Origin: a virus
Taxonomy: Duplodnaviria > Caudoviricetes
IMG/VR virus record: IMGVR_UViG_3300024270_000002
Reading direction: 5' to 3' (one strand)
Length of the DNA stretch: 64,000 nucleotides
Under the pieces are notes generated by a model that saw only the letters and a program-made list of their open reading frames with translations, was not told the origin of the DNA and did no database searches. Of the stretch, positions 7,469 through 45,646 are shown in pieces. How positions within the stretch are numbered: the first letter of the stretch is position 1; each line of letters opens with the position of its first letter. Made by a program: the position numbers and the translations under genes.

Positions 7469-8398
7469 ATGGCAAAGTTAATTATTTTATGTGGGCTTCC
7501 TGGTTCCGGAAAAAGTTATTATGCTGAGCATTTCAAGCTTATAGATGATACTTTTTATGACGGTGCTACAGTTATTCATTCATCTGATAATATCAGAGAG
7601 GAGCTTTTTGGTGACGCAGGCTCTCAGGAAGATAATGGTAGAGTATTTGAGCTTATGCGTAAGAGAACTCAAGAAGACCTTAGAGCCGGCAAGACTGTAA
7701 TTTATGATGCTACTAACGTTACCAGAAAGGCTCGTAAGTCTGCTATTGCTTGTGCTCATCCTACTAATGATACTATAGAGTGTCATGTAGTATGGGCAGA
7801 TCCTGAGGAGTGTATCCGTCGTGACGGCCTACGAGACCGTAAAGTAGGTCCTGCAGTAATTGATAAGATGCTTCGTCGCTGGCAGAGTCCTTGGCTTGAT
7901 GAAGGCTTTGATAAAGTTGAAATTCATCTAAATCAGCACGATTTTGACCAGGTTAGATATGTTGCTAGCATGACTTCTGATATGCATATTCCTCATAATA
8001 ACCCTCATCACAAGCTTGGAGTATGGGAACATTGTATGCAGGCTTATAATAATATTGTAGTAAAGCATAAGGATACTAAGCATATTTTTAATTCATTGGC
8101 TGCTGCAGCTTTTTGGCATGATATTGGAAAGCCTTATACTAAGTTTTTCAAGCATGGTGAGGATATTGCTCACTATTATGACCATCACTGCGTTGGAGGC
8201 TACCTAGCTTATGGCTTGTTTTTGAATCCTGATCATCACTTACTGCGTGATGTGGAGATGGACAATATTTGCTTTATTAGCTGGATGATAGCTAACCATA
8301 TGGAACCTTTCTTTGATTCTAATTACTATAGAGACCTTAATCCCAAGTGGAAGTGGTATATCGACGCTATCCACGAGGCAGATCTTGCTGCGCATTAA
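7469..8398 (+). CDS. Polynucleotide kinase (AAA_33 P-loop) fused to HD phosphohydrolase; RNA end-healing enzyme
   Basis: GLPGSGKS, SSDNIREEL, YDATN; HD domain HH...EH...HDIGKP...H...H...D. Confidence 0.85.
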   Translation: MAKLIILCGLPGSGKSYYAEHFKLIDDTFYDGATVIHSSDNIREELFGDAGSQEDNGRVFELMRKRTQEDLRAGKTVIYDATNVTRKARKSAIACAHPTNDTIECHVVWADPEECIRRDGLRDRKVGPAVIDKMLRRWQSPWLDEGFDKVEIHLNQHDFDQVRYVASMTSDMHIPHNNPHHKLGVWEHCMQAYNNIVVKHKDTKHIFNSLAAAAFWHDIGKPYTKFFKHGEDIAHYYDHHCVGGYLAYGLFLNPDHHLLRDVEMDNICFISWMIANHMEPFFDSNYYRDLNPKWKWYIDAIHEADLAAH

Positions 8399-8534: not shown

Positions 8535-8629
8535 AAAATAAAGAAACTACTTATTTAAGCGGTGGCTTGTTTTGGTGTATTTATTATCAAAAAGCTATCG
8601 CTAATTTTATTTTATCGGAGGTATTTACC

Positions 8630-10612
8630 ATGACTGAACTTCAGAACATTCTTATTGCTCGTCGTATGCTCGTAGCATCTGATTATAAGGATGCTTATAA
8701 CCCTAATCTCAAGATTGAGAAGGCATATATTAATGCTTTCCTTCTTTCCAACTTCGGTATCGTTGTAGATAAGCCTGAGCTCCTTACTAAGGAGATGGTA
8801 AAGGATATCTCCGATATCTATAAGCTTGAGGTTCCTGCTTCTTATTTCAAGAATCCTCAGGACACCCGCTTCTATACTGCTGAGGAGCTTCTCGTTGAGC
8901 AGTGCGTATCGTATTTCCTTGCTTACGGTGCCGAGGATTCTCATGTTCATGTATTTGATAAGGAGCTTCCTTCTTATCCTGTAGGTGATGAGATCAAGAT
9001 CCGTGAGTTCCGTATCCTTAGCTCAGACGAGGCTCTCGCAGAGCTTTTGGCTATCACTAAGGCTTACGCCGCTTATAAGCGTCCTTGGGGCCTGGACGAG
9101 ATCAATGAGTTCCTTACTCTTTATACTAAGGGCTTCTATCGCTTCACTGAGATGCCTATTCTCTGTGGTGATAATGCTGTAACTATGCTTGATCATAATA
9201 CTGATTTCGGTCAGTTCTTGTTCAAGAAGGACGTAGTAAAGCTTTCTGTAGCCAAGGCAGGCGAGAAGAAGGAGCTTACTCTTGACCCTGAAACCCGTAG
9301 ACTTATTAAGGCTATTCTCCCTCTCGTGAAGGATTGTCCTATGTCTAAGAAGCAGGCGAAGTATTTCAATAAGCTCGTCCAGATCACTGGCGTGAACGTA
9401 AAGAAGACTTCTAATGCTTGTTCACCTAACAAGCTCGCTCTCGAGGAGCTTAATGCTGGTAATGTTCTTGACGCCGCTGAGATTTTCGCTAAGTCTGGCT
9501 CTCTTCTTGAGCGTAACCTCAAGTTCCTTCTCTCCAGAGCTAATCCCGTTGAGGCAGTAAAGATTCTCGATATGCTCTCTGACCAGAACCCCACTGTTCT
9601 TTATCAGCTCATGTCTACTATCACTGCAGATACTGAGGATGCTCGTACCTTCTCCTTCTATGCTAAGAACAAGATCAAGACTCACGTTGAGACTGAGTAC
9701 GAGGCACGCTATAGAAAGTCTCGCCTTAATGACGCAACCAAGAAGCTCGTCCATGACGTATGCTTTAATAAGATTGCAGGTCATTATCAGGCAGCTGAGA
9801 AGCTTGGAAAGGTTTACATCGATCCTAAGTTCTATCGTGTTGCAATGCCCGTAAATACCTCTGCTTCTGGTAAGGGTATTGATGTTCCTGCCACTGGTAC
9901 TCGTCTGCCTATTACCGGTACTAAGATTCGTTCTTTTGTACACTGGGAGAAGGCGTTCGATATTGACTCTTCTATTGTTCTCGAGCATGAGGACGGTAAG
10001 CTTAATACCATCAACTTCTGCAGCTACCACGACAGAAACTACAATGGCGCTGCTCGTTTTTCTGGTGATATTACTGGTCCTCAGGGAACTGAGTACTTCG
10101 ACCTTGATCTTGAGTCTCTCAAGAACCAGGGTGTGAAGAGAGTAGTATTTACCTTCCACGGTTATTGTTCTACTCTTAACTCTGGTGAAATCTACTGTGG
10201 CTACCAGAACAAGAAGGACTTCAATACCAAGGCTTGGGATCCTAAGAATATTGAGCTTAAGATCCATGTTAAGGGTGAGAAGCGTGCCTATGTGGCGTTT
10301 GCTGTCGACCTCGAGACTATGGAGATTGTAGTACTCAACCTTATGCGTGATGATGACTCTCGAGTTGTTTCTGCTAAGGACTTTGAGTCTATCAAGGCCT
10401 TCATGGATCCTGCAAAGCTTGAGCTCAATATGGGTCTCATTGCTGAGTGGCTTGCGACCGAGGTAGTAGAGAATCCTACTGAGGCAGACTATGTGTTTGC
10501 AGATGATTATACTACTCCTATTAACCTTCAGGATGAGAACGGCGAGCCTAAGGTTCAGACCGTAATCAGATCCTTCGACGTCGAAAAGCTTAACGAGATT
10601 GCAAACGTTTAA
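8630..10612 (+). CDS. Large protein with helical N-terminus and C-terminal TerD-like domain (putative ROT/TROVE-TerD, Ro60-like)
   Basis: C-terminal DIDSS...FSGDITG...EYFDLDL...VVFTFHGY is TerD-like; SGSLLERNLKFLL resembles the PGxfxRxLdxLLR motif of this family; SD ggagg at 8617; strongly biased codon usage. Confidence 0.6.
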   Translation: MTELQNILIARRMLVASDYKDAYNPNLKIEKAYINAFLLSNFGIVVDKPELLTKEMVKDISDIYKLEVPASYFKNPQDTRFYTAEELLVEQCVSYFLAYGAEDSHVHVFDKELPSYPVGDEIKIREFRILSSDEALAELLAITKAYAAYKRPWGLDEINEFLTLYTKGFYRFTEMPILCGDNAVTMLDHNTDFGQFLFKKDVVKLSVAKAGEKKELTLDPETRRLIKAILPLVKDCPMSKKQAKYFNKLVQITGVNVKKTSNACSPNKLALEELNAGNVLDAAEIFAKSGSLLERNLKFLLSRANPVEAVKILDMLSDQNPTVLYQLMSTITADTEDARTFSFYAKNKIKTHVETEYEARYRKSRLNDATKKLVHDVCFNKIAGHYQAAEKLGKVYIDPKFYRVAMPVNTSASGKGIDVPATGTRLPITGTKIRSFVHWEKAFDIDSSIVLEHEDGKLNTINFCSYHDRNYNGAARFSGDITGPQGTEYFDLDLESLKNQGVKRVVFTFHGYCSTLNSGEIYCGYQNKKDFNTKAWDPKNIELKIHVKGEKRAYVAFAVDLETMEIVVLNLMRDDDSRVVSAKDFESIKAFMDPAKLELNMGLIAEWLATEVVENPTEADYVFADDYTTPINLQDENGEPKVQTVIRSFDVEKLNEIANV

Positions 10613-11248: not shown

Positions 11249-11309
11249 GAGCCAATGCTTATTTCTGCTGCATAAGCACCAAACTTTTAATTTGTGATTT
11301 AGCTTGGCC
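11249..11309 (+). ncRNA. Bulged-helix Y-RNA-like motif, copy 2
   Basis: GAGCCAATGCTTATTTCT...AGCTTGGCC just after a TATTGTATAATATA promoter. Confidence 0.7.
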
Positions 11310-11332
11310 ATAGTTTAGTTTTATGTTATACT

Positions 11333-11445
11333 GAGCCAATACTTATTTCTAATGCTGGGAACTGTGTGTCGTAGGTTCAAATCCTACCTTGGCGACCATC
11401 GCCAAGTAGCTCAGTGGTAGAGCAATAGTTAATTATAGTTTGGCC
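11333..11445 (+). ncRNA. YrlA-like RNA: bulged-helix motif copy 3 enclosing a circularly permuted tRNA mimic
   Basis: Order is T-arm (gtagg ttcaaat cctac), closed acceptor (cttggcga cca tcgccaag), D-arm (gctc agtggta gagc); aactgt/atagtt stem. Confidence 0.8.
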
Positions 11446-11460
11446 TTAATAAAAAATATA

Positions 11461-11568
11461 AGCTGATTAGCTTAATGGCAAATCCTGGATGGTTTTACAC
11501 GTCAAATTAAGGGACAGAGCCCCTCCCTTTAAAGGAGGAGATTCCGTGTTCGACTCCGGAGTCAGCTT
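11461..11568 (+). tRNA. tRNA-like gene with UUA (ochre-suppressor) anticodon and ~35-nt D-loop insertion; may be a pseudo-tRNA
   Basis: agctgat/gtcagct acceptor; cctcc ctTTAaa ggagg; bulged T-stem; no encoded CCA. Confidence 0.5.
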
Positions 11569-11575
11569 TATATAT

Positions 11576-11764
11576 GCTCCAGTGGTGGAATTGGCAGACA
11601 CCCGGGACTTGTTTGAATAGTTTAAAGGTAAAACAGGAAGCCTAGTACTGATGTATTGAACAAAACGAGGAACAGCATCCAGATGTGAGTTCGAGTCTTA
11701 CTTTAAGCACCAAAAATCCCGTGCCCTTCGGGGCGTACCGGTTCGAGTCCGGTCTGGAGCACCA
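11576..11764 (+). tRNA. tRNA-Leu(UAA) interrupted by a nested tRNA-like element (11611-11712)
   Basis: gctccag/ctggagc acca; cggga CTT|AAAA tcccg after removing the insert; long variable arm. Confidence 0.85.
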
Positions 11765-11779
11765 TAGCAGTTTTGTTAA

Positions 11780-12549
11780 GGTCTGCAGAATTAAAAACTT
11801 AAATGACAGTTGGAAAGACAACCGACGGTTCCGGTGCGTAGTGGTTAGAAGCATCGACTTAGATATGGTAGTAAGCTAATACAACAATAACTACCCAATA
11901 GCTCATAACGTTAATAACGGTAAGTAGGCTGATAAGCAGAGTGAAACTGCTAAGTGTGTTGTGCATATCCACACTAATTAGTGAGTTGTTGAAAATTTTG
12001 AATACTGTAGATGCGAATATAGACGGAGTTAGAGATTATTAAGGCAAATCTTCGTTAGCCGATTGCGCGGGAGCTGCTTCTATGGCCGTAGGCTCCTTAC
12101 AGTATCCGTATCATATGAAGGGTGATGACCTTGCAAGTGGTGAAATGATATATCTGCTTGACGTGCTGATACGTATCAGACATATGGTCGGCGTTAGCCC
12201 ACCTCGAGTGCGTTAATCTCGAGTACTTATCGTGAGGGGTATTATTAGATTTCTGTTAGTTACATTTTTACGAATAACCGGTAGTCAAGCAGGACGATAA
12301 CTACTGCTTTGGGTATAACAGCATTTGTGGCTACTAGTTATCTCGACATTAAGGCTAATAAATTAAATAACACCTTGAGGCGGCGGAAAAGACTTAAGAG
12401 ACAAAGCGATGCCAAAGGGCTCCGAACGAATAAAAAGAGTTGAAAAAGTTGTAAGGCTGTAAAGAAGCTCGTACTCTTTTTGCTTATGTTGACGCTGAAA
12501 AGTATTGCATAAGACTTTGAGTCCAGGATGAGGTGTGGCTACGCAGACC
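11780..12549 (+). ncRNA. Large (~770 nt) structured non-coding RNA, family unassigned
   Basis: No credible ORF; ggtctgc/gcagacc closes the ends; many internal hairpins. Confidence 0.5.
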
Positions 12550-13613: not shown

Positions 13614-13723
13614 TCTAAGTATGGTGTAGTGGGAACATGATTGCCCAGTAGCATTGAGGTTAAGGTGAGATTCCTTAAAAGAGCGAAAAGCATTCGTCGA
13701 AGGTTCGAGCCCTTCTATTTAGA
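13614..13723 (+). ncRNA. tRNA-like RNA with an insert containing a second T-arm in its anticodon loop
   Basis: tctaagta/tatttaga; internal taagg tgagatt cctta. Confidence 0.5.
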
Positions 13724-13995
13724 CTAAGGTCAGCACTTGAGAACAAGAGAGCAGGGGAAGTTAATATCGTAAGATAGTCGTGACTGCTTTTCATGGTGGA
13801 CCTATTAAAAAATAAAAATAATGTAGATTGGTGCTATTAAGTAATCGTAGGAACAACGATGAAAGATAAGCAATTACCAGAGTAAGGCGGATCTAAGGTA
13901 GGAGTGGTGAGCGAGACCCGATGCAGCCGTTCGATTCGGCAAGAAACCTTACAGCGGCATAGAGCCAGCGAAACTATGCATCTACATTTTTATAT

Positions 13996-14087
13996 TGAGG
14001 GATCGCCAAGTTGGGAAGGCACTGGGCTTTGACCCCAGCAGCGCGACTTATGTCCGATCGGGAGTTCGAGCCTCCCTCCCTCAGCCA
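13996..14087 (+). tRNA. tRNA-Gln(UUG) with enlarged variable region
   Basis: ctggg ctTTGac cccag; ~21-nt variable region; CCA. Confidence 0.8.
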
Positions 14088-15931: not shown

Positions 15932-16095
15932 GGGGTAGGTAGTGAAGTGGCCAAACACGCGGACTGTAACTCCGTGCTTTACTGTATTGGACTTGCTTGA
16001 AGGAACTCGCGACTCTGAATAGTAAGATTCAATCAAGTTTAGGCGCGCATGTGACTTGTAAAGCTTCGCTGGTTCGAATCCAGCCCTCCCCACCA
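15932..16095 (+). tRNA. tRNA-Tyr(GUA) with giant (~90 nt) variable arm
   Basis: gcgga ctGTAac tccgt; gctttac/gtaaagc closes the insert; bulged acceptor; CCA. Confidence 0.7.
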
Positions 16096-16104
16096 AAATT
16101 TTAT

Positions 16105-16180
16105 GCACCTTTAGCTCAGTTGGTAGAGCAACTGACGCTTAATCAGTGGGTCCGGGGTTCGAGTCTCCGATGGCACACCA
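16105..16180 (+). pseudogene. tRNA-Lys(CUU)-like pseudogene
   Basis: G33 instead of U; three acceptor-stem mismatches. Confidence 0.65.
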
Positions 16181-16204
16181 GAAGTATTAAAAATATTATA
16201 ATAT

Positions 16205-16281
16205 CCTGCTGTAGGCTCAATTGGCAGAGCTTCTGACTTATAATCGGAGGGCTGGTGGTTCGATCCCACCCAGTAGGACCA
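16205..16281 (+). tRNA. tRNA-Ile(UAU)
   Basis: tctga ctTATaa tcgga; CCA. Confidence 0.8.
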
Positions 16282-33504: not shown

Positions 33505-35781
33505 ATGAGAGAAGAGATGATTGTAAAATATATCGCAGACGACGGCGCTACTTTTAAAGATAAATTGGACTGTCTAAATTATGAAAAGCTTTGTGAAAAG
33601 TATAAGAAGTGGTTGGCAGACGGTAAAGTGATGTTTTGGGATCACGATGAAAATTACATAAATTTCGACCTCGGCGGCTGTCATGAAGGTGTTAATTATC
33701 TTGACTGGCTTAAGAAGCGCCTGTCCACAGGAATCGGCTATATCATGATTAATGAGCATCCTTGTAGTAGCAGTTGGATTTCCATTTGGGAATTTGTAGT
33801 AAAGTTTTGCAACTTTGACACAGACGAAATCAAGAAGCTTGAGCCAACGTATCGTGAGGGCGATTTGTTAAACTATGATCCGCATGATTGTAGCTTTCAT
33901 AATATCGATTTAGTTATTAGAAATGCTACAGCAGCTAAAGACCGCTTGGTAAAAGACTTAGCACATAAGGCGTTTAATGCCGGTAAGGAGGAAGAAAATG
34001 AAGGAACTTGTTAACCTTGTTGCAGAGAATCCCGACCTGCCTATTATTGCCTTGGTACATGGAGAGGTCTGTGGAGATGACTGCGGCTACTGGCTTGGTT
34101 GCTGCGGTTCGGCTTCTGTAGAGCTTGTAGGCTGTATTGGTGAGCGATATTATACTGATTTCGAAGAGTTTATGGAAGTATACTATGATAGACACGATGA
34201 GGAGCTCTGTGAGAAATTTAATTATAATCCACGTTGTTGTGCGGTTGCTGTAGAGCGTGGCGAATACACTCAGGAGCAGTTTGCAGCTAATTGTCTCGCA
34301 GAAGAGCAGCTTGATAATTATCTTAAGGAAGTAGCTAATAAATATATGATAAAAGCTATTGTTATGTACGTAGATCTTCCCAAAGATAGTGTTATAATGG
34401 AGGTAGACTAATGATAGAGCTTACTTATGGTGAACTTAAACAGGGGCTTCTTTGCTGTACAGTTTATAGAGACTGTAAGGGGTGTCCTTTATTTGATGAA
34501 GATAAAATGCAGACGGCTACGGCTGGTGATGTGTCTTGTACTGGGCAGCTGTTAAGTGCCGCAATGAACTGTATTAATGTGATGGAAAAAGATCTTGATG
34601 CTGCTACTAAACGCGCAGACGAGTGGGAAGCCACTGCAACAGCGCATGAGAAAGCTTTAATTGATCTTCATGATAGTTTAGATATAAAAGATATTAAAGC
34701 ATTGGCTGCTAAAGAATTTGCTGGCTTTGTGCAGGAGTGGATGACTTATACTTTTCCATGTGCGGAAGACTGTGACCATAAGGTTCAGCAGGTACTTGAT
34801 ATTTATCTTAACTATTTAAAACAACCTAAGCAGTCAACTGAGGGGAAATTCTAATGGCTGACTTAAGAGGAGCTTTACTTGCTGCAGCTGAAGAAGCTGA
34901 TAAAATGCAGGACCAGATTGATGCCAATGAAGTAGACCTTCGTAATACTCAGGCTGAGTTAGAGAATACTAGGCAGTTACTACTGGACACTCGTTGTATA
35001 GTAGAAGAGCTTTATAACAAGAATGAAACACTTAAGAGGCAGCTTAAGAATACCGGAGAATTGATGCATAATATGGCAGAAATTTTGATTTCAGCGGCAG
35101 ATTTATGAGTAAAAGTATTGTATAATATAATAGACTTCGGGCTGCTTCGCTTTGAGGCAGCCTTATTATTTTTGGAGGAAATTAAGATGCTACAGCGAAT
35201 TGATATTAAATTAGCAGAGTACTGGTTTGGCTATAATGAGTACTATGTTTATTATGACGACGAATACATGACACAGGAGCAAGCAGAGAAAGCCCTTGAG
35301 TTTATCGACTGGGGCGGGTGGGAGCCTGAACTTACGCCTTATTATCTTATCGTGCCGGCAGTAAAGAAACCACTTTTAAACAGTATTAAAGAATATTTTG
35401 TAAGTGGACGTCACCAGGAGGAAAATAATGAAACTTGATTTGCACGATATTGAGAAGTGTGAAGCTTGCGGAGCAGAAAATGTAAAAGGTCTTGTTGCTT
35501 GTTCTTTATTTGGAGCATACTCTGGGGCGTGGTGTGAAAACTGCCTTAGAGAAGGTAGAGATAGCTACAACTTGATGGTAGACTATATTGCTGATGCGGG
35601 GCAGTGGCCTGAGGATATAAATGAGACTTATCAAGAAGAAGTTAGACGTCAGCTTAAATTGCATAATAAAACAGAAGAAGACTTTAAGAAAGACGTAGAT
35701 AAGATTATTGAGTTTTTACGCTCAGATATGCCTACTACTTATATAGTTTTAGATACTATTGGTACAGAGGGGGATTTTTAA
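33505..35781 (+). other. Six small hypothetical genes
   Basis: Packed + ORFs 33505, ~33998, 34411, 34854, ~35187, ~35428. Confidence 0.65.
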
Positions 35782-35782
35782 C

Positions 35783-36301
35783 ATGAGATCAAGAATTTGT
35801 TTCCTTGATTATGACGGGGTCGTTAACACACCAATGTGGAATGAAGAAGGCACTCATTGCTCGTACAACCACAATGGTCATGGTAAAGTAAATAATTTTC
35901 AGGCAGTTCAGTGGCTTTCTGAGGCGTGCCAGAAGTTTGGCTATGATATTGTAGTCACTTCCACTTGGCGCATCTGGGACAATTATAAGGAATGTCTTAC
36001 CCACGGTGGTCTTAGAGATGGTATTGAAATTCTTGGTAAAACTGATCGTCTTAGAGGCGTTTGTAGAGGTGCTGAGATTAAGAAGTACATCGATGAGCAT
36101 CCCGAAATCCAGTATTATGTTATTGTAGATGATGAAGCGGATATGCTACCCGAACAAATGGGTCATTTTATTATGACTAACGGAGATACAGGTTTTAATC
36201 TCAGTGAGTTTAAAAGATTTGAAGAAATTTTTAACAAAGATAATGAGCGGGGCGGGTCTTTTCCTGAAAGAAAACAGAAAGATTATAGGAGAACAGTATG
36301 A
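35783..36301 (+). CDS. HAD phosphatase, Swiss-army-knife RNA-repair type
   Basis: FLDYDGV...IVVTSTWR...RGAEI...YVIVDD. Confidence 0.85.
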   Translation: MRSRICFLDYDGVVNTPMWNEEGTHCSYNHNGHGKVNNFQAVQWLSEACQKFGYDIVVTSTWRIWDNYKECLTHGGLRDGIEILGKTDRLRGVCRGAEIKKYIDEHPEIQYYVIVDDEADMLPEQMGHFIMTNGDTGFNLSEFKRFEEIFNKDNERGGSFPERKQKDYRRTV

Positions 36302-36484
36302 TTACAAAAAAGCAAGCTATTGATATTGTAAATAAATTTGAATTTTTCCAAGGGCAGAGAGCAGGAAGAGAGCTTTGGAGCTCAAAAGAGTACTCAGTAC
36401 AGGAAGTAGATCTCGTAAGCTTTCGTCAAGATTGTTATGACTTGCTTGAATATTTAAAAAATACGGAGACTAAACAGAATGATA

Positions 36485-37030
36485 ATGTATAATACTGGAA
36501 TGATTATTGGCAGATTTCAACCGTTCCATTTAGGACATTCTATTATCCTTGACAAAGCGCTAGACCAATGCAATAAAGTAATTGTGGTAATTGGTTCTGC
36601 TCAAGAAAGTGGAACACCTTTAAACCCATTGTCTGCATCTGAAAGAGAACAAATTATTATAGATAGTTTTACGAATAGACTTGATTATGATAATCTTGAA
36701 AAAATTGAATTCCTGCATCTTAACGATAGAGAACATTGGTGCAATGATTCTTCTTTTGGAGAATATGTTATAAATGCAATCGAGCATACATACGGAGTAA
36801 CACCTAGCGTAGTATTTGAAGGAAAAGAATCTTCTCGTAATAGCTGGTTTGATACTATCGATATTGATGTAGTTCAGATATCAAGAAATAAATGTGCAGT
36901 ATCTGGTACTGAATTAAGAGAGGCTATTTATAATGGAGATAGAACTACCTGGGAAAATCAATGTGCTCCTGGAATTGAATATTGTTTTGATAGTATAAGG
37001 GAGGCGATATTAAATGCTACAAAAAACTAA
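36485..37030 (+). CDS. nadM: NMN/NaMN adenylyltransferase (NadM-like)
   Basis: IGRFQPFHLGH, IGSAQES, NPL...ER, SGTELRE. Confidence 0.85.
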   Translation: MYNTGMIIGRFQPFHLGHSIILDKALDQCNKVIVVIGSAQESGTPLNPLSASEREQIIIDSFTNRLDYDNLEKIEFLHLNDREHWCNDSSFGEYVINAIEHTYGVTPSVVFEGKESSRNSWFDTIDIDVVQISRNKCAVSGTELREAIYNGDRTTWENQCAPGIEYCFDSIREAILNATKN

Positions 37031-37766
37031 AGAGCTAATTACTTGGATTAGAGAACAGTTTAAAGATATTCCTGATGGTCATGCCATTATCGGTATTTCA
37101 GGCGGTAAGGACTCTACTATCGCTGCAGCGCTTTGTGTTGAGGCCTTGGGCGCTGATAGAGTAATCGGAGTATTAATGCCACAAGGCGTACAAAAAGATA
37201 TTAGTGATTCTTATGAAGTTGTTGCAACTCTTAAGCTTCAGTATCATGTTGTTAATATTGGAGCTGCCTGTGAAGAATTATATCGTTCTATTAGCGATGC
37301 TGTTTTTCTTTGTGGCGGTAAAAATGCAATAGAATCTAATTCTATGATTACGACAAATGCTCCGGCAAGAATGCGTATGACTGCTTTGTACGCTATTGCA
37401 GCACTTTATACTAATTCCCGTGTGGTAAATACCTGCAACGCATCCGAAGATTATGTTGGTTATTCCACTAAGTATGGCGATGCAGCTGGGGACTTTTCGC
37501 CTCTCGGTAATCTTACTGTGAGAGAGGTGCTTAAAATTGGGGATGATTTAGGCCTTCCTAAGCATTTAGTGCATAAGCCGCCTTCTGACGGTATGTGCGG
37601 TAAAACAGACGAAGATAATCTTGGATTTACTTATGAACAGCTTGATGACTATCTTTTGGGAACAGGCGATGTTCCGCTGGATGTAGTTGAAAAAATTAAA
37701 AAACTGCATAAAGCTACTCGACACAAATATGTACTTATGCCAATGTTTAATAATTTTAAAAAGTGA
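37014..37766 (+). CDS. nadE: NH3-dependent NAD+ synthetase
   Basis: GISGGKDS, N..ARMRM, GYSTKYGD, KPPSDG...TDE. Confidence 0.95.
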   Translation: MLQKTKELITWIREQFKDIPDGHAIIGISGGKDSTIAAALCVEALGADRVIGVLMPQGVQKDISDSYEVVATLKLQYHVVNIGAACEELYRSISDAVFLCGGKNAIESNSMITTNAPARMRMTALYAIAALYTNSRVVNTCNASEDYVGYSTKYGDAAGDFSPLGNLTVREVLKIGDDLGLPKHLVHKPPSDGMCGKTDEDNLGFTYEQLDDYLLGTGDVPLDVVEKIKKLHKATRHKYVLMPMFNNFKK

Positions 37767-37777
37767 GGAAAATAACT

Positions 37778-38977
37778 ATGATGAAGCTTAGTCCTATTAT
37801 TGTATCTTTGTTGGATACCGACCTTTATAAATGGAATATGTGTCAGGTATTCTTTCATAAGCATACCAATATGAATGGTAAGTATATTTTTAAATGTAGA
37901 AACGAAGGAGTAGAGTTTACTTCTGAGATGGTTGAAGAAATCAATGCTCAGATCGACCACCTCTGTACTCTTACGCTGACTGATGAAGAACTTGACTATC
38001 TCGCTTCTTTGAGATTTATTAAGAAGGACTATGTTGAGTTCCTTCGTATTTGGAGACCACTTCGCAGATATGTAAATTGTTTTTATGATGATAGTAGCCC
38101 CTGCAAGATGAGAATTGAAATCGAAGGGCCACTTTTCTCAGTAATGCAGTTTGAAATTTATCTTCTTGAAATTGTTAATGAGACGTATTTCAGAATGAAG
38201 TATGATTATATGCAGCTTGTAGAGTCAGCTAAAGACAGACTTTATTATAAGACTAATTCTTTTAGGCTGGAAGAATACGATTTTAAATTTGCTGAATTTG
38301 GTTGTCGAAGAAGACTTTCCAGAGAATGGCAGGATTATGTAGTTAGCGAGCTTCTAAAGACCGGCAAGTGCGTAGGCACTTCTAATACGTATCTTGCGAT
38401 GAAGTATGGTTGTAAACCCATTGGAACTTACGCTCATGAGTACGTTCAGATGTTCCAGGGAGTTCCTGGTATTCAGCTTGCGTACACAAATAAGGTTGCA
38501 ATGGAAGAGTGGTTTGATGAGTATCAGGGAGATAATGGAACTGCACTTACTGATACTCTCGGAACAGACCTTTTCCTTAGAGACTTTAACAAGCTTCAGG
38601 CAATGTGCTATACTGGAGTAAGACATGATAGCGGAGATCCTTATGAGTGGGGAGAAAAAATTATCGCTCATTATGAGAAGCTTGGAATTGACCCCAAAAC
38701 AAAGACTCTTCTTTTTAGTGATAGCCTTGATTTTGTAAGGGCTCAGGCCATCTATGATTATTTCAACAAAAGAATTAATGTAAGCTTTGGTATTGGAACT
38801 TATCTTTCAAATGACACTAATGTAAATCCTCTTAATATTGTTATTAAGCTTCAATATGTAAATGGTCACCCCGTCGCAAAGATTTCTGATAATCCCGGAA
38901 AGGCTATGTGCCAAGATGACTCCTATCTCGCATATTTGAAAAACGCAGTTGATTATAGATTAAAGGAAGGTATTTAA
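37778..38977 (+). CDS. pncB: Nicotinate phosphoribosyltransferase
   Basis: SLLDTDLYK, EFGCRRR, GTSN, GTYAHE, GVRHDSGDP, FSDSL, FGIGT, KISD.PGK. Confidence 0.95.
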   Translation: MMKLSPIIVSLLDTDLYKWNMCQVFFHKHTNMNGKYIFKCRNEGVEFTSEMVEEINAQIDHLCTLTLTDEELDYLASLRFIKKDYVEFLRIWRPLRRYVNCFYDDSSPCKMRIEIEGPLFSVMQFEIYLLEIVNETYFRMKYDYMQLVESAKDRLYYKTNSFRLEEYDFKFAEFGCRRRLSREWQDYVVSELLKTGKCVGTSNTYLAMKYGCKPIGTYAHEYVQMFQGVPGIQLAYTNKVAMEEWFDEYQGDNGTALTDTLGTDLFLRDFNKLQAMCYTGVRHDSGDPYEWGEKIIAHYEKLGIDPKTKTLLFSDSLDFVRAQAIYDYFNKRINVSFGIGTYLSNDTNVNPLNIVIKLQYVNGHPVAKISDNPGKAMCQDDSYLAYLKNAVDYRLKEGI

Positions 38978-38979
38978 AT

Positions 38980-39543
38980 ATGAAAGTATTGCTTGTAGTT
39001 GACGTTCAGAATGATTTTGTAACTGGAGCTTTGGCAAATCCTGATGCACAGGCCAAGATTCCTGCCATTAGGGAAAGGATTCAGCAGCGAATTAATGAGG
39101 GCTGGCAGGTAATGTTTACACAGGATACACATTATAACAGCTATAGTGCTTCTATGGAAGGTAAGTATTTGCCAGTGCCTCACTGTATTGATGGAACTTG
39201 GGGTTGGCAAATAGTAGATGAGGTCAAGGAGTTTGAAGCTTCTCAACTTCATATGCCAATTTGTAAGCTTAGATTTGGTGATGATTACCTATTTGAAAAG
39301 ATTATTAGCCGTTTATTTCCAAATTGGCGAAGCATAAATAATTACTTTATTGAAGAAATTGAGCTTATTGGTTTCTGTACTGATATTTGTGTAGTTTCTA
39401 ATGCTTTGATTTTGAAGGCATCTGTTGATAATAATACTGTTATTAGCTGTGATGCTTCTTGCTGTGCTGGTACATCTATTGAAGCACATGAGGCAGCTAT
39501 TAAAGTAATGCAGTCTTGTCAGGTAGAGGTAAGAAATGCATAA
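38980..39543 (+). CDS. pncA: Nicotinamidase (isochorismatase family)
   Basis: VVDVQNDF, TQDTH, PHC..GT.G, GFCTDICV. Confidence 0.9.
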   Translation: MKVLLVVDVQNDFVTGALANPDAQAKIPAIRERIQQRINEGWQVMFTQDTHYNSYSASMEGKYLPVPHCIDGTWGWQIVDEVKEFEASQLHMPICKLRFGDDYLFEKIISRLFPNWRSINNYFIEEIELIGFCTDICVVSNALILKASVDNNTVISCDASCCAGTSIEAHEAAIKVMQSCQVEVRNA

Positions 39544-43496: not shown

Positions 43497-43523
43497 AATT
43501 AAATAATGAAAGGCAATTATATT

Positions 43524-44315
43524 ATGGCAAATAAAAAAGATTCGCTCGGCGATAGAATGAAAGATAATTATGAAAATAGAGCTAAGACTTATCTTACCAG
43601 AAGGCTTCCTGTGGTGATCCGAATCGACGGCAAATGTTTTCATTCATTTTGTAAGAACTTTCAGAAACCTTATGACGAGGTTTTTCATAAGGCAATGAAC
43701 TCTACCTTGCAGTATCTTTGTAAAAACATTCAGGGATGTAAGTTCGGATACACCCAGAGCGACGAAATTTCGCTTCTGTTGACTGATTACGATACACTGA
43801 CTACAGATGCCTTTTTTGATTACAACGTGCAAAAGATCTGCTCTATTGCGGCTTCTATGGCTACTCTGCACTTTAATAAGGCTTTCAGAACTTATGTTAA
43901 TGAATATACTGCTGGTAAAACTCTTGATAGCTATTCTATTGAGTTACTAAAGGCCAAGGATAAGGGAGCAATGTTTGACGCTCGCTGCTTCAGCATTCCT
44001 GCATCGGAAACGTGTAACGTATTTATTTGGAGGCAGCAAGATGCGACTCGAAATGCTGTTCAGATGCTCGGGCAGACGTACTTTAGTCACAAGGAACTCC
44101 ATAAGAAGTCTACTTCAGATATCCAGGAAATGTTGTGGCAAAAGGGTATTAATTTCAATGATATGCCTATTGAGTTTAAGCGTGGTGTTTGCTGTTTTAA
44201 GAGAGCTATTGAGGTAAGAGGCGCAGCACGAACTGAGTGGTATATTGATAAAGAATGTCCTATTTTTACACAGGATAGAAATTATATTGAAAGATTTCTT
44301 CCCAAGGAGAACTAA
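43524..44315 (+). CDS. thg1: Thg1-like 3'-5' polymerase (tRNA-His guanylyltransferase family)
   Basis: RIDGKCFH, GYTQSDEIS, FDARCF, WRQQDATRN. Confidence 0.93.
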   Translation: MANKKDSLGDRMKDNYENRAKTYLTRRLPVVIRIDGKCFHSFCKNFQKPYDEVFHKAMNSTLQYLCKNIQGCKFGYTQSDEISLLLTDYDTLTTDAFFDYNVQKICSIAASMATLHFNKAFRTYVNEYTAGKTLDSYSIELLKAKDKGAMFDARCFSIPASETCNVFIWRQQDATRNAVQMLGQTYFSHKELHKKSTSDIQEMLWQKGINFNDMPIEFKRGVCCFKRAIEVRGAARTEWYIDKECPIFTQDRNYIERFLPKEN

Positions 44316-44873
44316 ATGACAAACAGAGAAAAATTTATTCAACTTTGTGCTAAGATTGATAGGCCTGGAAAAGCAGAACTTTTTGAATGGCTAGAGAGTA
44401 GTGATTTTTTCAGTGCTCCGGCAAGCGCAAAGTATCACGGCTCCTATGAAGGTGGACTTGTTGAGCACTGCCTTAACGTATATGAAGCTCTATTTAAGCT
44501 TCTAACTATTTATCCTGAGATCGAAGTTTCAGCTGAGAGCGCTTTGATTGTGTCACTTTTCCATGACCTCTGTAAAGTAAATATGTATGAGAAAGAAACT
44601 CGTTATCGTAAAGATGAGAACGGCAAGTGGGAACCCTATGAAGCTTATACTCACAATGAGAAACTTCATTATGGCGGACATGGAAGTAAGTCAGTATTTA
44701 TTCTTCAGAACTTTATTAAGCTAACACCTGAGGAAGCTGTTGCTATAAATTGCCATATGAGCTCTTGGGAAGACAATCCTAACGTAGGTGCCGCTTTTGA
44801 GCACTGTCCTTTGGCTTGGTTACTTCATGTTGCTGACGAGAGTGCTACTTTTATTACGGAGGCTAGAAAGTAA
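44316..44873 (+). CDS. HD-domain phosphohydrolase
   Basis: APAS..YH...GGLVEH...HDLCK...GHG. Confidence 0.85.
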   Translation: MTNREKFIQLCAKIDRPGKAELFEWLESSDFFSAPASAKYHGSYEGGLVEHCLNVYEALFKLLTIYPEIEVSAESALIVSLFHDLCKVNMYEKETRYRKDENGKWEPYEAYTHNEKLHYGGHGSKSVFILQNFIKLTPEEAVAINCHMSSWEDNPNVGAAFEHCPLAWLLHVADESATFITEARK

Positions 44874-44875
44874 AT

Positions 44876-45646
44876 ATGAAGTTATTTTGTGTTTCAGATA
44901 TACATAGCTTTTATACACCGTTTAAAAAAGCTTTAGACGACGCTGGTTTTGAAAAAGATAATCCAACTCACTACCTTGTCAGCTGCGGGGATGTGCTAGA
45001 CCGTGGTAGCGAAAGCGAGGAAGTGCTCCATTTCCTGATGTCACTTGAAAGAAAGATCCTTGTAAAGGGTAATCACGATCTTCTTCTTGAAGAATGTTGC
45101 ATGAGAGAATTTCCGTATAGCTATGATGTATCGAACGGGACTGTAAAAACGATCAATGACATCGGCGGCGCTGGAGAAGGTTATCCTTTTGATAAGTGCT
45201 GTGAAAATACTTGGAATAGGACCGCCGCGTATCGAGCTTCACTTGTAAATTATTTTGAGACTGAAAATTATATTTTTGTTCATTCGTGGGTGCCTCTTAA
45301 ATGCTTAGACGACATGCCCAAGCATTATACTAAGAATAGACAGTTTGAATATGACCCTGAATGGCGTACTGCAGACAGAGATTCTTGGGAGCAAGCTATG
45401 TGGGGTAATCCTTTCGAACTTGCTGAGCGGGGACTTAATCATACAGGCAAAACTATAGTATTCGGACACTTCCATACGAGTTGGCCAAGAGCTAAATATG
45501 AGGGGAAGCCCGAGTTTGACGAGGGTGCGGATTTTTCATCGTATTACGGTGATGGTTATATTGCACTAGATGCTTGCACTGTCCATACCGGAAAAGTTAA
45601 TGTTTTAGTTATTGAAGATAATTTTTTAAATAAGGAAGGTATTTAA
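44876..45646 (+). CDS. Calcineurin-like metallophosphoesterase
   Basis: SDIH, GDVLDRG, KGNHD, FGHFH. Confidence 0.9.
   Translation: MKLFCVSDIHSFYTPFKKALDDAGFEKDNPTHYLVSCGDVLDRGSESEEVLHFLMSLERKILVKGNHDLLLEECCMREFPYSYDVSNGTVKTINDIGGAGEGYPFDKCCENTWNRTAAYRASLVNYFETENYIFVHSWVPLKCLDDMPKHYTKNRQFEYDPEWRTADRDSWEQAMWGNPFELAERGLNHTGKTIVFGHFHTSWPRAKYEGKPEFDEGADFSSYYGDGYIALDACTVHTGKVNVLVIEDNFLNKEGI

Follow-up and report, generated by a model that had tools for sequence, protein, structure and literature searches.

A tRNA-like insert in the anticodon loop of a phage tRNA-Leu(UAA) gene suggests a tRNA-mimic class of intron

The window analyzed here, a stretch of 64,000 nucleotides of DNA from a virus of the Caudoviricetes, contains a tRNA-Leu(UAA) gene (11576-11764, plus strand) that is split between U34 and A35 by a 102-nt insert (11611-11712), and this insert is itself tRNA-like. 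Judging from sequence, we give a probability of about one half to the reading that it is a true intron of a tRNA-mimic class, marked by a minihelix and an NCCA tail and removed by RNase P, a cut behind the CCA, and an ATP-dependent RNA ligase. To our knowledge, bacteria and phages have been thought to possess only self-splicing tRNA introns; if the proposal holds, it would represent a new splicing route that works by tRNA mimicry, in which universal end-processing enzymes cut and a repair ligase closes, and phage RNA ligases would thereby gain a housekeeping task in addition to repair.

The first-pass annotation had placed a 102-nt insert within the anticodon of a tRNA-Leu, and ARAGORN, run with introns allowed, returned a tRNA-Leu(taa) with an intron at exactly 11611-11712. 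When the insert was deleted in silico, a check proposed in the same annotation, the program called a normal 87-nt type II tRNA-Leu(UAA) with a long variable arm and A73. The loop pieces carried by the two exons, CTT (11608-10) and AAAA (11713-16), are flanked by CGGGA and TCCCG, and only removal of G+1 through CCA yields the predicted 7-nt loop, CUUAAAA, so the boundaries are unambiguous for a loop of that size; the predicted spliced junction of the tRNA-Leu is GGGACUU-AAAAUCCCG. The insert was also correctly described as a cloverleaf of its own, with a non-decoding arm and a terminal ACCA: its stems can be read directly (Table 1), and the Rfam tRNA model (RF00005) matches 11611-11709 over its full length (model positions 1-71) with 39.4 bits against a gathering score of 29. 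The anticodon arm is replaced by about 39 extra nucleotides, and the 5-bp stem and 7-nt decoding loop are absent; the inner element is tRNA-like and no true tRNA. Folded as a whole to minimum free energy, the 189 nt keep the outer cloverleaf, with the insert protruding from the anticodon stem. The nested gene is the sole tRNA-Leu(UAA) in the tRNA array of the window, and CCA is encoded by 29 of the 31 conventional tRNAs; in the ORFs of the window, TTA ranks second among Leu codons in use (22.7 per 1000 codons).

Table 1. Positions of the two nested tRNA genes, their component parts, and RNA-repair-type genes within the window.
Feature	Position	Strand	Detail or basis
tRNA-Leu(UAA), exon 1	11576-11610	+	Acceptor 5' strand, D arm; ARAGORN, covariation of exons in relatives
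tRNA-Leu(UAA), exon 1, anticodon part	11603-07; 11608-10	+	Stem 5' strand CGGGA; C32 U33 U34
Putative tRNA-like intron of tRNA-Leu, 102 nt	11611-11712	+	Rfam RF00005, 39.4 bits; homologues of same architecture
Leu insert, acceptor stem, 7 bp	11611-17 with 11702-08	+	GTTTGAA with TTTAAGC
Leu insert, D arm	11620-34	+	GTTT/AAAC; read from sequence
Leu insert, enlarged non-decoding arm	about 11635-84	+	
Leu insert, T arm	11685-11701	+	GTGAG-TTCGAGT-CTTAC
Leu insert, tail ACCA	11709; 11710-12	+	Discriminator A; CCA
tRNA-Leu(UAA), exon 2	11713-11764	+	A35 A36 A37 A38, stem 3' strand TCCCG
tRNA-Leu(UAA), exon 2, remainder	within 11713-11764	+	Long variable arm, T arm, acceptor 3' strand, ACCA
tRNA-Pro(UGG), exon 1	21132-21168	+	C1, D arm, stem CGTGA, loop UUUG
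Putative tRNA-like intron of tRNA-Pro, 67 nt	21169-21235	+	Acceptor GTCGGAA/TTTCGGC, ACCA; Rfam tRNA, 36 bits at 21169-21232
Pro insert, inner parts	within 21169-21235	+	Short D arm, stunted anticodon region, T arm
tRNA-Pro(UGG), exon 2	21236-21276	+	GGA, stem TCACG, variable loop, T arm, acceptor, ACCA
P-loop polynucleotide-kinase-like gene (AAA_33)	7469-8398	+	Pfam PF13671, E 3.7e-21
RNA-repair-type cluster	43506-45646	+	Thg1-like 43506-44315, HD 44316-44873, metallophosphatase 44876-45646 (Pfam)

A second nested gene was found at 21132-21276, the body of which shows the features of a bacterial tRNA-Pro in a reading of the sequence (C1-G72, A73, and the variable loop GGGTC). Excision from +1 through CCA at 21169-21235 gives the loop UUUGGGA, that of tRNA-Pro(UGG); the ARAGORN guess of Leu-CAG for this gene was dropped, the tRNA body being that of Pro. 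No further Pro tRNA is present in the array, and with both nested genes the array covers all 20 amino acids. Default ARAGORN gives no call for either gene, and for this reason the phage had seemed to be without tRNA-Pro and tRNA-Leu(UAA); tRNA gene finders overlook nested genes of this kind.

Several other unusual elements lie in the window. A tRNA-Tyr(GUA)-like gene (15933-16095), kept in locus L002 at 16083-16245, has a 75-nt insertion (15983-16057) at the tip of its variable arm with a 7-bp stem, GCTTTAC/GTAAAGC; ARAGORN miscalled this gene as Asn with an 84-nt intron and called it tRNA-Tyr once the tip was shortened. Directly upstream of the nested tRNA-Leu is a permuted tRNA-like RNA (11349-11452; Rfam YrlA, 39.2 bits, below the gathering score of 69), with weaker YrlA-like matches at 25522, 24026, and 27094, followed by a tRNA-like element (11460-11570) with the acceptor AAGCTGA/TCAGCTT, an arm CCTCC-CTTTAAA-GGAGG (UUA, ochre-type), and an enlarged D region, which is kept in locus L021 at 2507-2616. 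A free-standing tRNA-like element at 13615-13724 (Rfam, 37.8 bits) has an enlarged anticodon region and no CCA, and the 92-nt tRNA-Gln(UUG) at 13996-14087 has an unusually long variable arm. A GOLLD RNA is located within the array at 25469-25989 (Rfam RF02032, 160 bits, above the gathering score), and at 27073-27224 a tRNA-Met (end 27149), one of the two tRNA calls of the window lacking a terminal CCA, abuts a tRNA-Thr (start 27150) with zero spacer in the ARAGORN coordinates.

The 681-aa protein encoded beside the nested tRNA-Leu (8567-10612) was used as a query to recruit 10 viral and 70 metagenomic loci, which were searched by a rule-based census: stretches bounded by a 7-bp stem and N-CCA were deleted, and a case was accepted when ARAGORN then formed a tRNA with the junction inside its anticodon loop. 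Nested Leu(UAA) inserts of 52, 65, 67, 68, 76, 77, 78, and 122 nt were obtained from these loci, and the phage of locus L009 has nested Glu(UUC) and Asp(GUC) genes as well. A scan of IMG/VR for the junction pattern recovered many additional carrier contigs of 46-205 kb, giving a total of 24 distinct Leu inserts of 47-122 nt, all at the same site, on >35 independent phage contigs; nested Gln(UUG), Ile(UAU), Lys(UUU), and Pro(UGG) genes occur on the same carrier contigs. In every one of the 24 Leu inserts, a 7-bp acceptor stacks directly on a T arm with a 5-bp stem and a 7-nt loop, and the tail is ACCA; A73 is likewise universal (24/24) and G1-C72 nearly so (23/24), and the middle parts, 12-87 nt in length, are unrelated in sequence.

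The same +1-to-NCCA rule, which all 24 Leu inserts obey, repairs the Leu and Pro tRNAs of the window and the Glu, Asp, Gln, Ile, and Lys tRNAs of other phages. The restored loops are in every case canonical, with 7 nt, U33, and purine 37, and the anticodon matches the tRNA body, at junction positions that range from 32/33 to 36/37 and follow different nucleotides (U, G, or C). The intron guesses made by ARAGORN (SeC, His, Leu-CAG) were discarded, the tRNA bodies being those of Pro, Glu, and Asp. Because ARAGORN tolerates several tail lengths, the 4-nt tail rule rests on the 7-nt loop together with the identity of the tRNA body. Three exceptions were noted: the inner acceptor stem in L037 is imperfect, leaving the register ambiguous; the nested tRNA-Ile(UAU) insert of L112 (acceptor CACTACA/TGTAGTG) has the tail ACAA, in which the 4-nt length is kept and CCA is not; and some inserts begin with C.

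In 596 Gb of prokaryote genomes, the junction pattern was matched about as often as expected by chance, and 3 of the 81 matches examined form a tRNA after excision, the other 78 forming none, compared with 18 of 22 pattern matches in viral contigs. The three tRNA-forming matches are on contigs of 120-165 kb in MAGs labeled Prevotella, Paludibacteraceae, and Bacilli; these contigs are probably phages, and the host of the window phage probably belongs to the Bacteroidales. The exact junction had no match in viral contigs (a collection without the window's own genome), the window region had only an unrelated 62-nt match among INPHARED phages, and blastn of the inserts against all loci revealed no close free-standing copies. 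Empty alleles, which the first-pass annotation had suggested seeking in related phages, do exist, some of these phages having an uninterrupted tRNA-Leu(UAA) with the same CTT↓AAAA loop.

Covariation of the inner stems was assessed in an alignment of 11 inserts, with 500 shuffles and slid registers as controls. Pairing in the acceptor and T stems is complete (100%), and 8 of the 12 pairs show compensatory changes; this level of pairing was equaled by none of the 500 shuffles, and slid registers were 36-53% paired. Exon pairing, the decay of which in relatives would have counted against the first-pass proposal, is retained, as all outer tRNA stems covary in 12 relatives, both intron-bearing and intron-free, and the halves of the anticodon stem covary across the insert that separates them. 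By these patterns of change the outer gene is under selection and kept functional, and recurrence, covariation, and the bacterial-genome control together exclude chance.

An acceptor/T-arm minihelix with CCA is a minimal substrate of RNase P and RNase Z, and G1-C72, A73, and CCA are determinants of bacterial RNase P. The Leu inserts present these substrate features almost without exception, namely the 7+5 bp stack in 24/24, G1-C72 in 23/24, and ACCA in 24/24. Since the junction varies from 32/33 to 36/37, the cuts appear to be set by the insert and not measured from the outer tRNA, and tRNA end maturation would be their simplest source, because the sites coincide with mature ends, their position in the loop varies, and the minihelix alone is conserved. 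From this logic we infer each enzyme, the order of the steps, and the chemistry of the ends. The precursor would fold as a tRNA within a tRNA, and host RNase P would read the inner acceptor/T-arm minihelix, G1-C72, and the ACCA tail and cut at the inner +1, leaving exon 1 with a U34-3'OH end. A second tRNA 3'-end endonuclease would cut exactly behind the inner CCA, producing exon 2 with a 5' phosphate and, by the same cut, freeing the tRNA-like RNA. Held together by the outer acceptor, D, T, and anticodon stems, the exons would present a nick in the anticodon loop, to be sealed by an ATP-dependent RNA ligase that would be phage-encoded in most carrier genomes, and the product would be the phage's only tRNA-Leu(UAA).

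Candidates for the nuclease acting after CCA are a CCA-tolerant RNase Z and an RNase E-type cut. The RNase Z of T. maritima cuts endonucleolytically right behind an encoded CCA (PMC3161902), and archaeal RNase Zs, whose requirements are limited to the acceptor stem and a matured 5' end, also cut after CCA (PMC7479834); however, CCA inhibits RNase Z in most bacteria (PMC3161902, PMC7479834). E. coli RNase E acts on proline tRNAs, with a proL site, ACCA↓AAAAUC (PMC5291269), that the 3' site of the window, ACCA↓AAAAUCC, closely resembles. The structural part of the earlier claim that ordinary maturation enzymes excise the insert is thus sustained, the sites lying at the inner +1 and NCCA of an invariant minihelix, and the enzymes themselves stand as candidates.

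The gene content of the carriers was examined for cutting and joining enzymes. RNase Z-like MBL proteins are absent from 5/5 carrier genomes and RtcB from all 20 phage genomes searched, the Bacteroides control having RtcB; the 681-aa neighbor was rejected as a dedicated splicing factor, as it is missing from other carrier lineages. With no candidate phage nuclease common to the carriers, host enzymes or an unrecognized nuclease are left, and the spread across lineages is consistent with host enzymes that are universal. A probable RNA ligase is encoded in 9 of 10 near-complete carrier genomes, several being of an OB-fold plus weak PF09414 type, and in G001, the closest of the near-complete relatives, a PF09414 RNA ligase is encoded beside RlaP; in one complete carrier genome (G015), a trial of three ligase families yielded an NAD-dependent DNA ligase only. 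Ligases are common also in relatives without a nested Leu gene, so their co-occurrence does not discriminate. No ligase was found within the 64-kb window, where tblastn of the RNA ligase, RlaP, and DNA ligase of G001 gave no match, and thus the ligase, if present, lies outside these 64 kb. RNA-repair-type genes are scattered through the window at 35759-36301, 43506-45646, and 7469-8398, including a SAK-type HAD and a Thg1-like 3'-5' polymerase; a cREC family match is also present, and NAD salvage genes are located at 36479-39543. The AAA_33 kinase is possibly an end-healing enzyme that may be linked to splicing.

These repair genes bear on an alternative that seems unlikely but is the most probable of those considered, namely that the insert is a true intron whose minihelix is read by a dedicated, unrecognized endonuclease of phage or host, leaving 2',3'-cyclic phosphate and 5'-OH ends that would be healed by phage kinase and phosphatase and sealed by a phage ligase, or joined directly by host RtcB. 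Such a route would suit the end-healing genes of the window (AAA_33 kinase, metallophosphatase, HD, SAK-type HAD, and the cREC match), the kinase-phosphatase-Rnl1 fusions of relatives, and the presence of RtcB in Bacteroides, and the ACAA tail of one insert hints at a distance ruler and not at reading of CCA. However, phages of this kind would be expected to carry healing genes in any case, as a defense against anticodon nucleases; no candidate nuclease is common to the carrier lineages, phage RtcB is found in 0/20 genomes, and bacterial RNase P has as its determinants precisely the invariant set of G1-C72, A73, and CCA.

It is improbable that the RNA goes unspliced, with the tRNA-like unit acting as a processing signal that frees a tRNA-like RNA and two halves as decoys or regulators, and no decoding tRNA being made. 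tRNA-like units do act as processing signals in mitochondria and in MALAT1, and this phage is rich in non-decoding tRNA-like and Y-RNA-like elements; however, halves alone would not need a 7-nt loop that is restored exactly, with U33 and purine 37, every time, nor does this alternative sit well with the covariation of the anticodon-stem halves across the insert or with the nested genes being the sole Leu(UAA) and Pro genes of the window, which complete its set of 20 amino acids.

Very little probability attaches to catalysis by RNA, whether through self-splicing or through a ribozyme acting in trans, with a group I-like core or as a large, ornate phage RNA such as the GOLLD encoded in the window. 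The insertion site, U34/A35, is the classical group I site of tRNA-Leu(UAA) in cyanobacteria and plastids, and a complete 209-kb related phage, G008, has a 651-nt intron at the identical site in its tRNA-Leu(UAA) (1511-2248 of locus L109, about 145211-145948 of G008:C1), with an HNH-type ORF and a weak group I match of 24 bits; this site is thus occupied alternately by true group I introns and by tRNA-mimic inserts. Introns of 181-183 nt in tRNA-Lys(UUU) genes at L007 5098-5368 and L060 1825-2095 share core motifs with the G008 intron. Against RNA catalysis, the group I model (RF00028) had no match in 11300-11900 at E values up to 10, conservation is limited to the tRNA-like stems, and the base ahead of the junction varies (U, G, C). 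Group I introns have a terminal G and about 200 nt or more, whereas the insert has 102 nt, with homologues down to 47 nt, and a 3' end in A; assignment to that class was rejected for want of a core match, for size, and for the ACCA end, and by sequence the insert cannot self-splice by group I chemistry.

A bulge-helix-bulge (BHB) intron was rejected as well. The inner acceptor stem, a helix of 7 bp, has the 5' site at its base and the 3' site 4 nt beyond its opposite strand, so both sites flank one end of the same helix; the loop strands measure 3 and 8 nt, where a BHB has 3-nt bulges with a 4-bp helix between them. EndA (PF01974) was found in none of five carrier phage genomes, with archaeal controls matching. 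The Rfam search and the fold thus agree with the earlier statement that the insert has neither a group I core nor a BHB. An assembly chimera, the error foreseen in the first-pass annotation, or a decaying pseudogene might be suspected from the metagenomic source of the assemblies and the imperfect inner stem of L037, but both are excluded by the recurrence of one architecture on >35 independent contigs from many metagenomes and by compensatory changes in the inner and outer stems.

A wider reading of a tRNA-mimic intron, possible though held tentatively, is that the inserts form a further class of tRNA intron that depends on proteins and would be the first such class in bacteria and their viruses, defined only by the minihelix and NCCA, processed by RNase P, a post-CCA nuclease, and a ligase, and mobile between Leu, Pro, Glu, Asp, Gln, Ile, and Lys anticodon loops across unrelated large phages. 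Until the repair enzymes of the phage have appeared, such inserts may leave the anticodon loop in an unfinished state, unmodified and uncleavable; shielding of the anticodon against host anticodon nucleases is a speculation. The minimal inserts of 47 nt, such as that of locus L138, offer a compact, directly testable substrate.

Several known systems resemble parts of this arrangement. In mitochondrial tRNA punctuation, MALAT1 mascRNA, and abutting phage tRNAs, a tRNA shape recruits RNase P and RNase Z, as would be the case here, but the flanks are never re-joined there. In the T4 response to PrrC (Pnkp, Rnl1), a phage ligase seals a break in the anticodon loop while the halves are still paired, and kinase, phosphatase, and ligase genes occur in the phage group of the window; T4 repair, however, mends a damaged intact host tRNA, removes no encoded insert, and acts on ends that need healing. 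The BHB introns of archaea and eukaryotes differ in that recognition here would target the intron's own tRNA shape, and in that the ends predicted here are 3'-OH and 5'-P, whereas the BHB route gives 2',3'-cyclic phosphate and 5'-OH. Group I introns of tRNA-Leu(UAA) share the insertion site U34/A35, but the window insert has 102 nt, no catalytic core, and an end in CCA rather than G.

The closest likeness is to the tRNA introns of Lak megaphages, which were reported as "enigmatic" and conserved, one of them, in Thr(TGT), being such that it "itself may encode a tRNA" (Devoto et al., 2019; PMC6784885). Like the inserts described here, these are short, conserved, non-group-I insertions in the anticodon loops of phage tRNAs, and their host is Prevotella, while two carrier contigs in this study were binned as Prevotella and Paludibacteraceae. 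The Lak Tyr intron, however, has extra 5' sequence ahead of its tRNA-like part and ends in ...GCTA (Table S6; PMC6784885), whereas the splice sites of the window are the +1 and the CCA of a full cloverleaf, and the window phage belongs to another clade, with genomes of about 220 kb in its closest relatives. The earlier claim of an undescribed splicing route therefore stands for the mechanism and not for the introns: Lak tRNA introns were already on record, with no mechanism, boundary rule, or class definition (PMC6784885), and our literature search found no description of a tRNA-like or nested tRNA intron with +1-to-CCA logic. The existence of such inserts is thus barely described, and the mechanism is not described. 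The window insert combines a position in the anticodon loop, a tRNA fold or its top half, and ends of the +1 and NCCA type, the features by which a tRNA-mimic phage intron may be recognized, and if the proposed route is correct, the Lak introns would be explained by it. What is new here is the full-cloverleaf, CCA-ended variant in a different phage clade, together with the boundary rule, the minimal invariant, and the breadth across tRNAs and phages.
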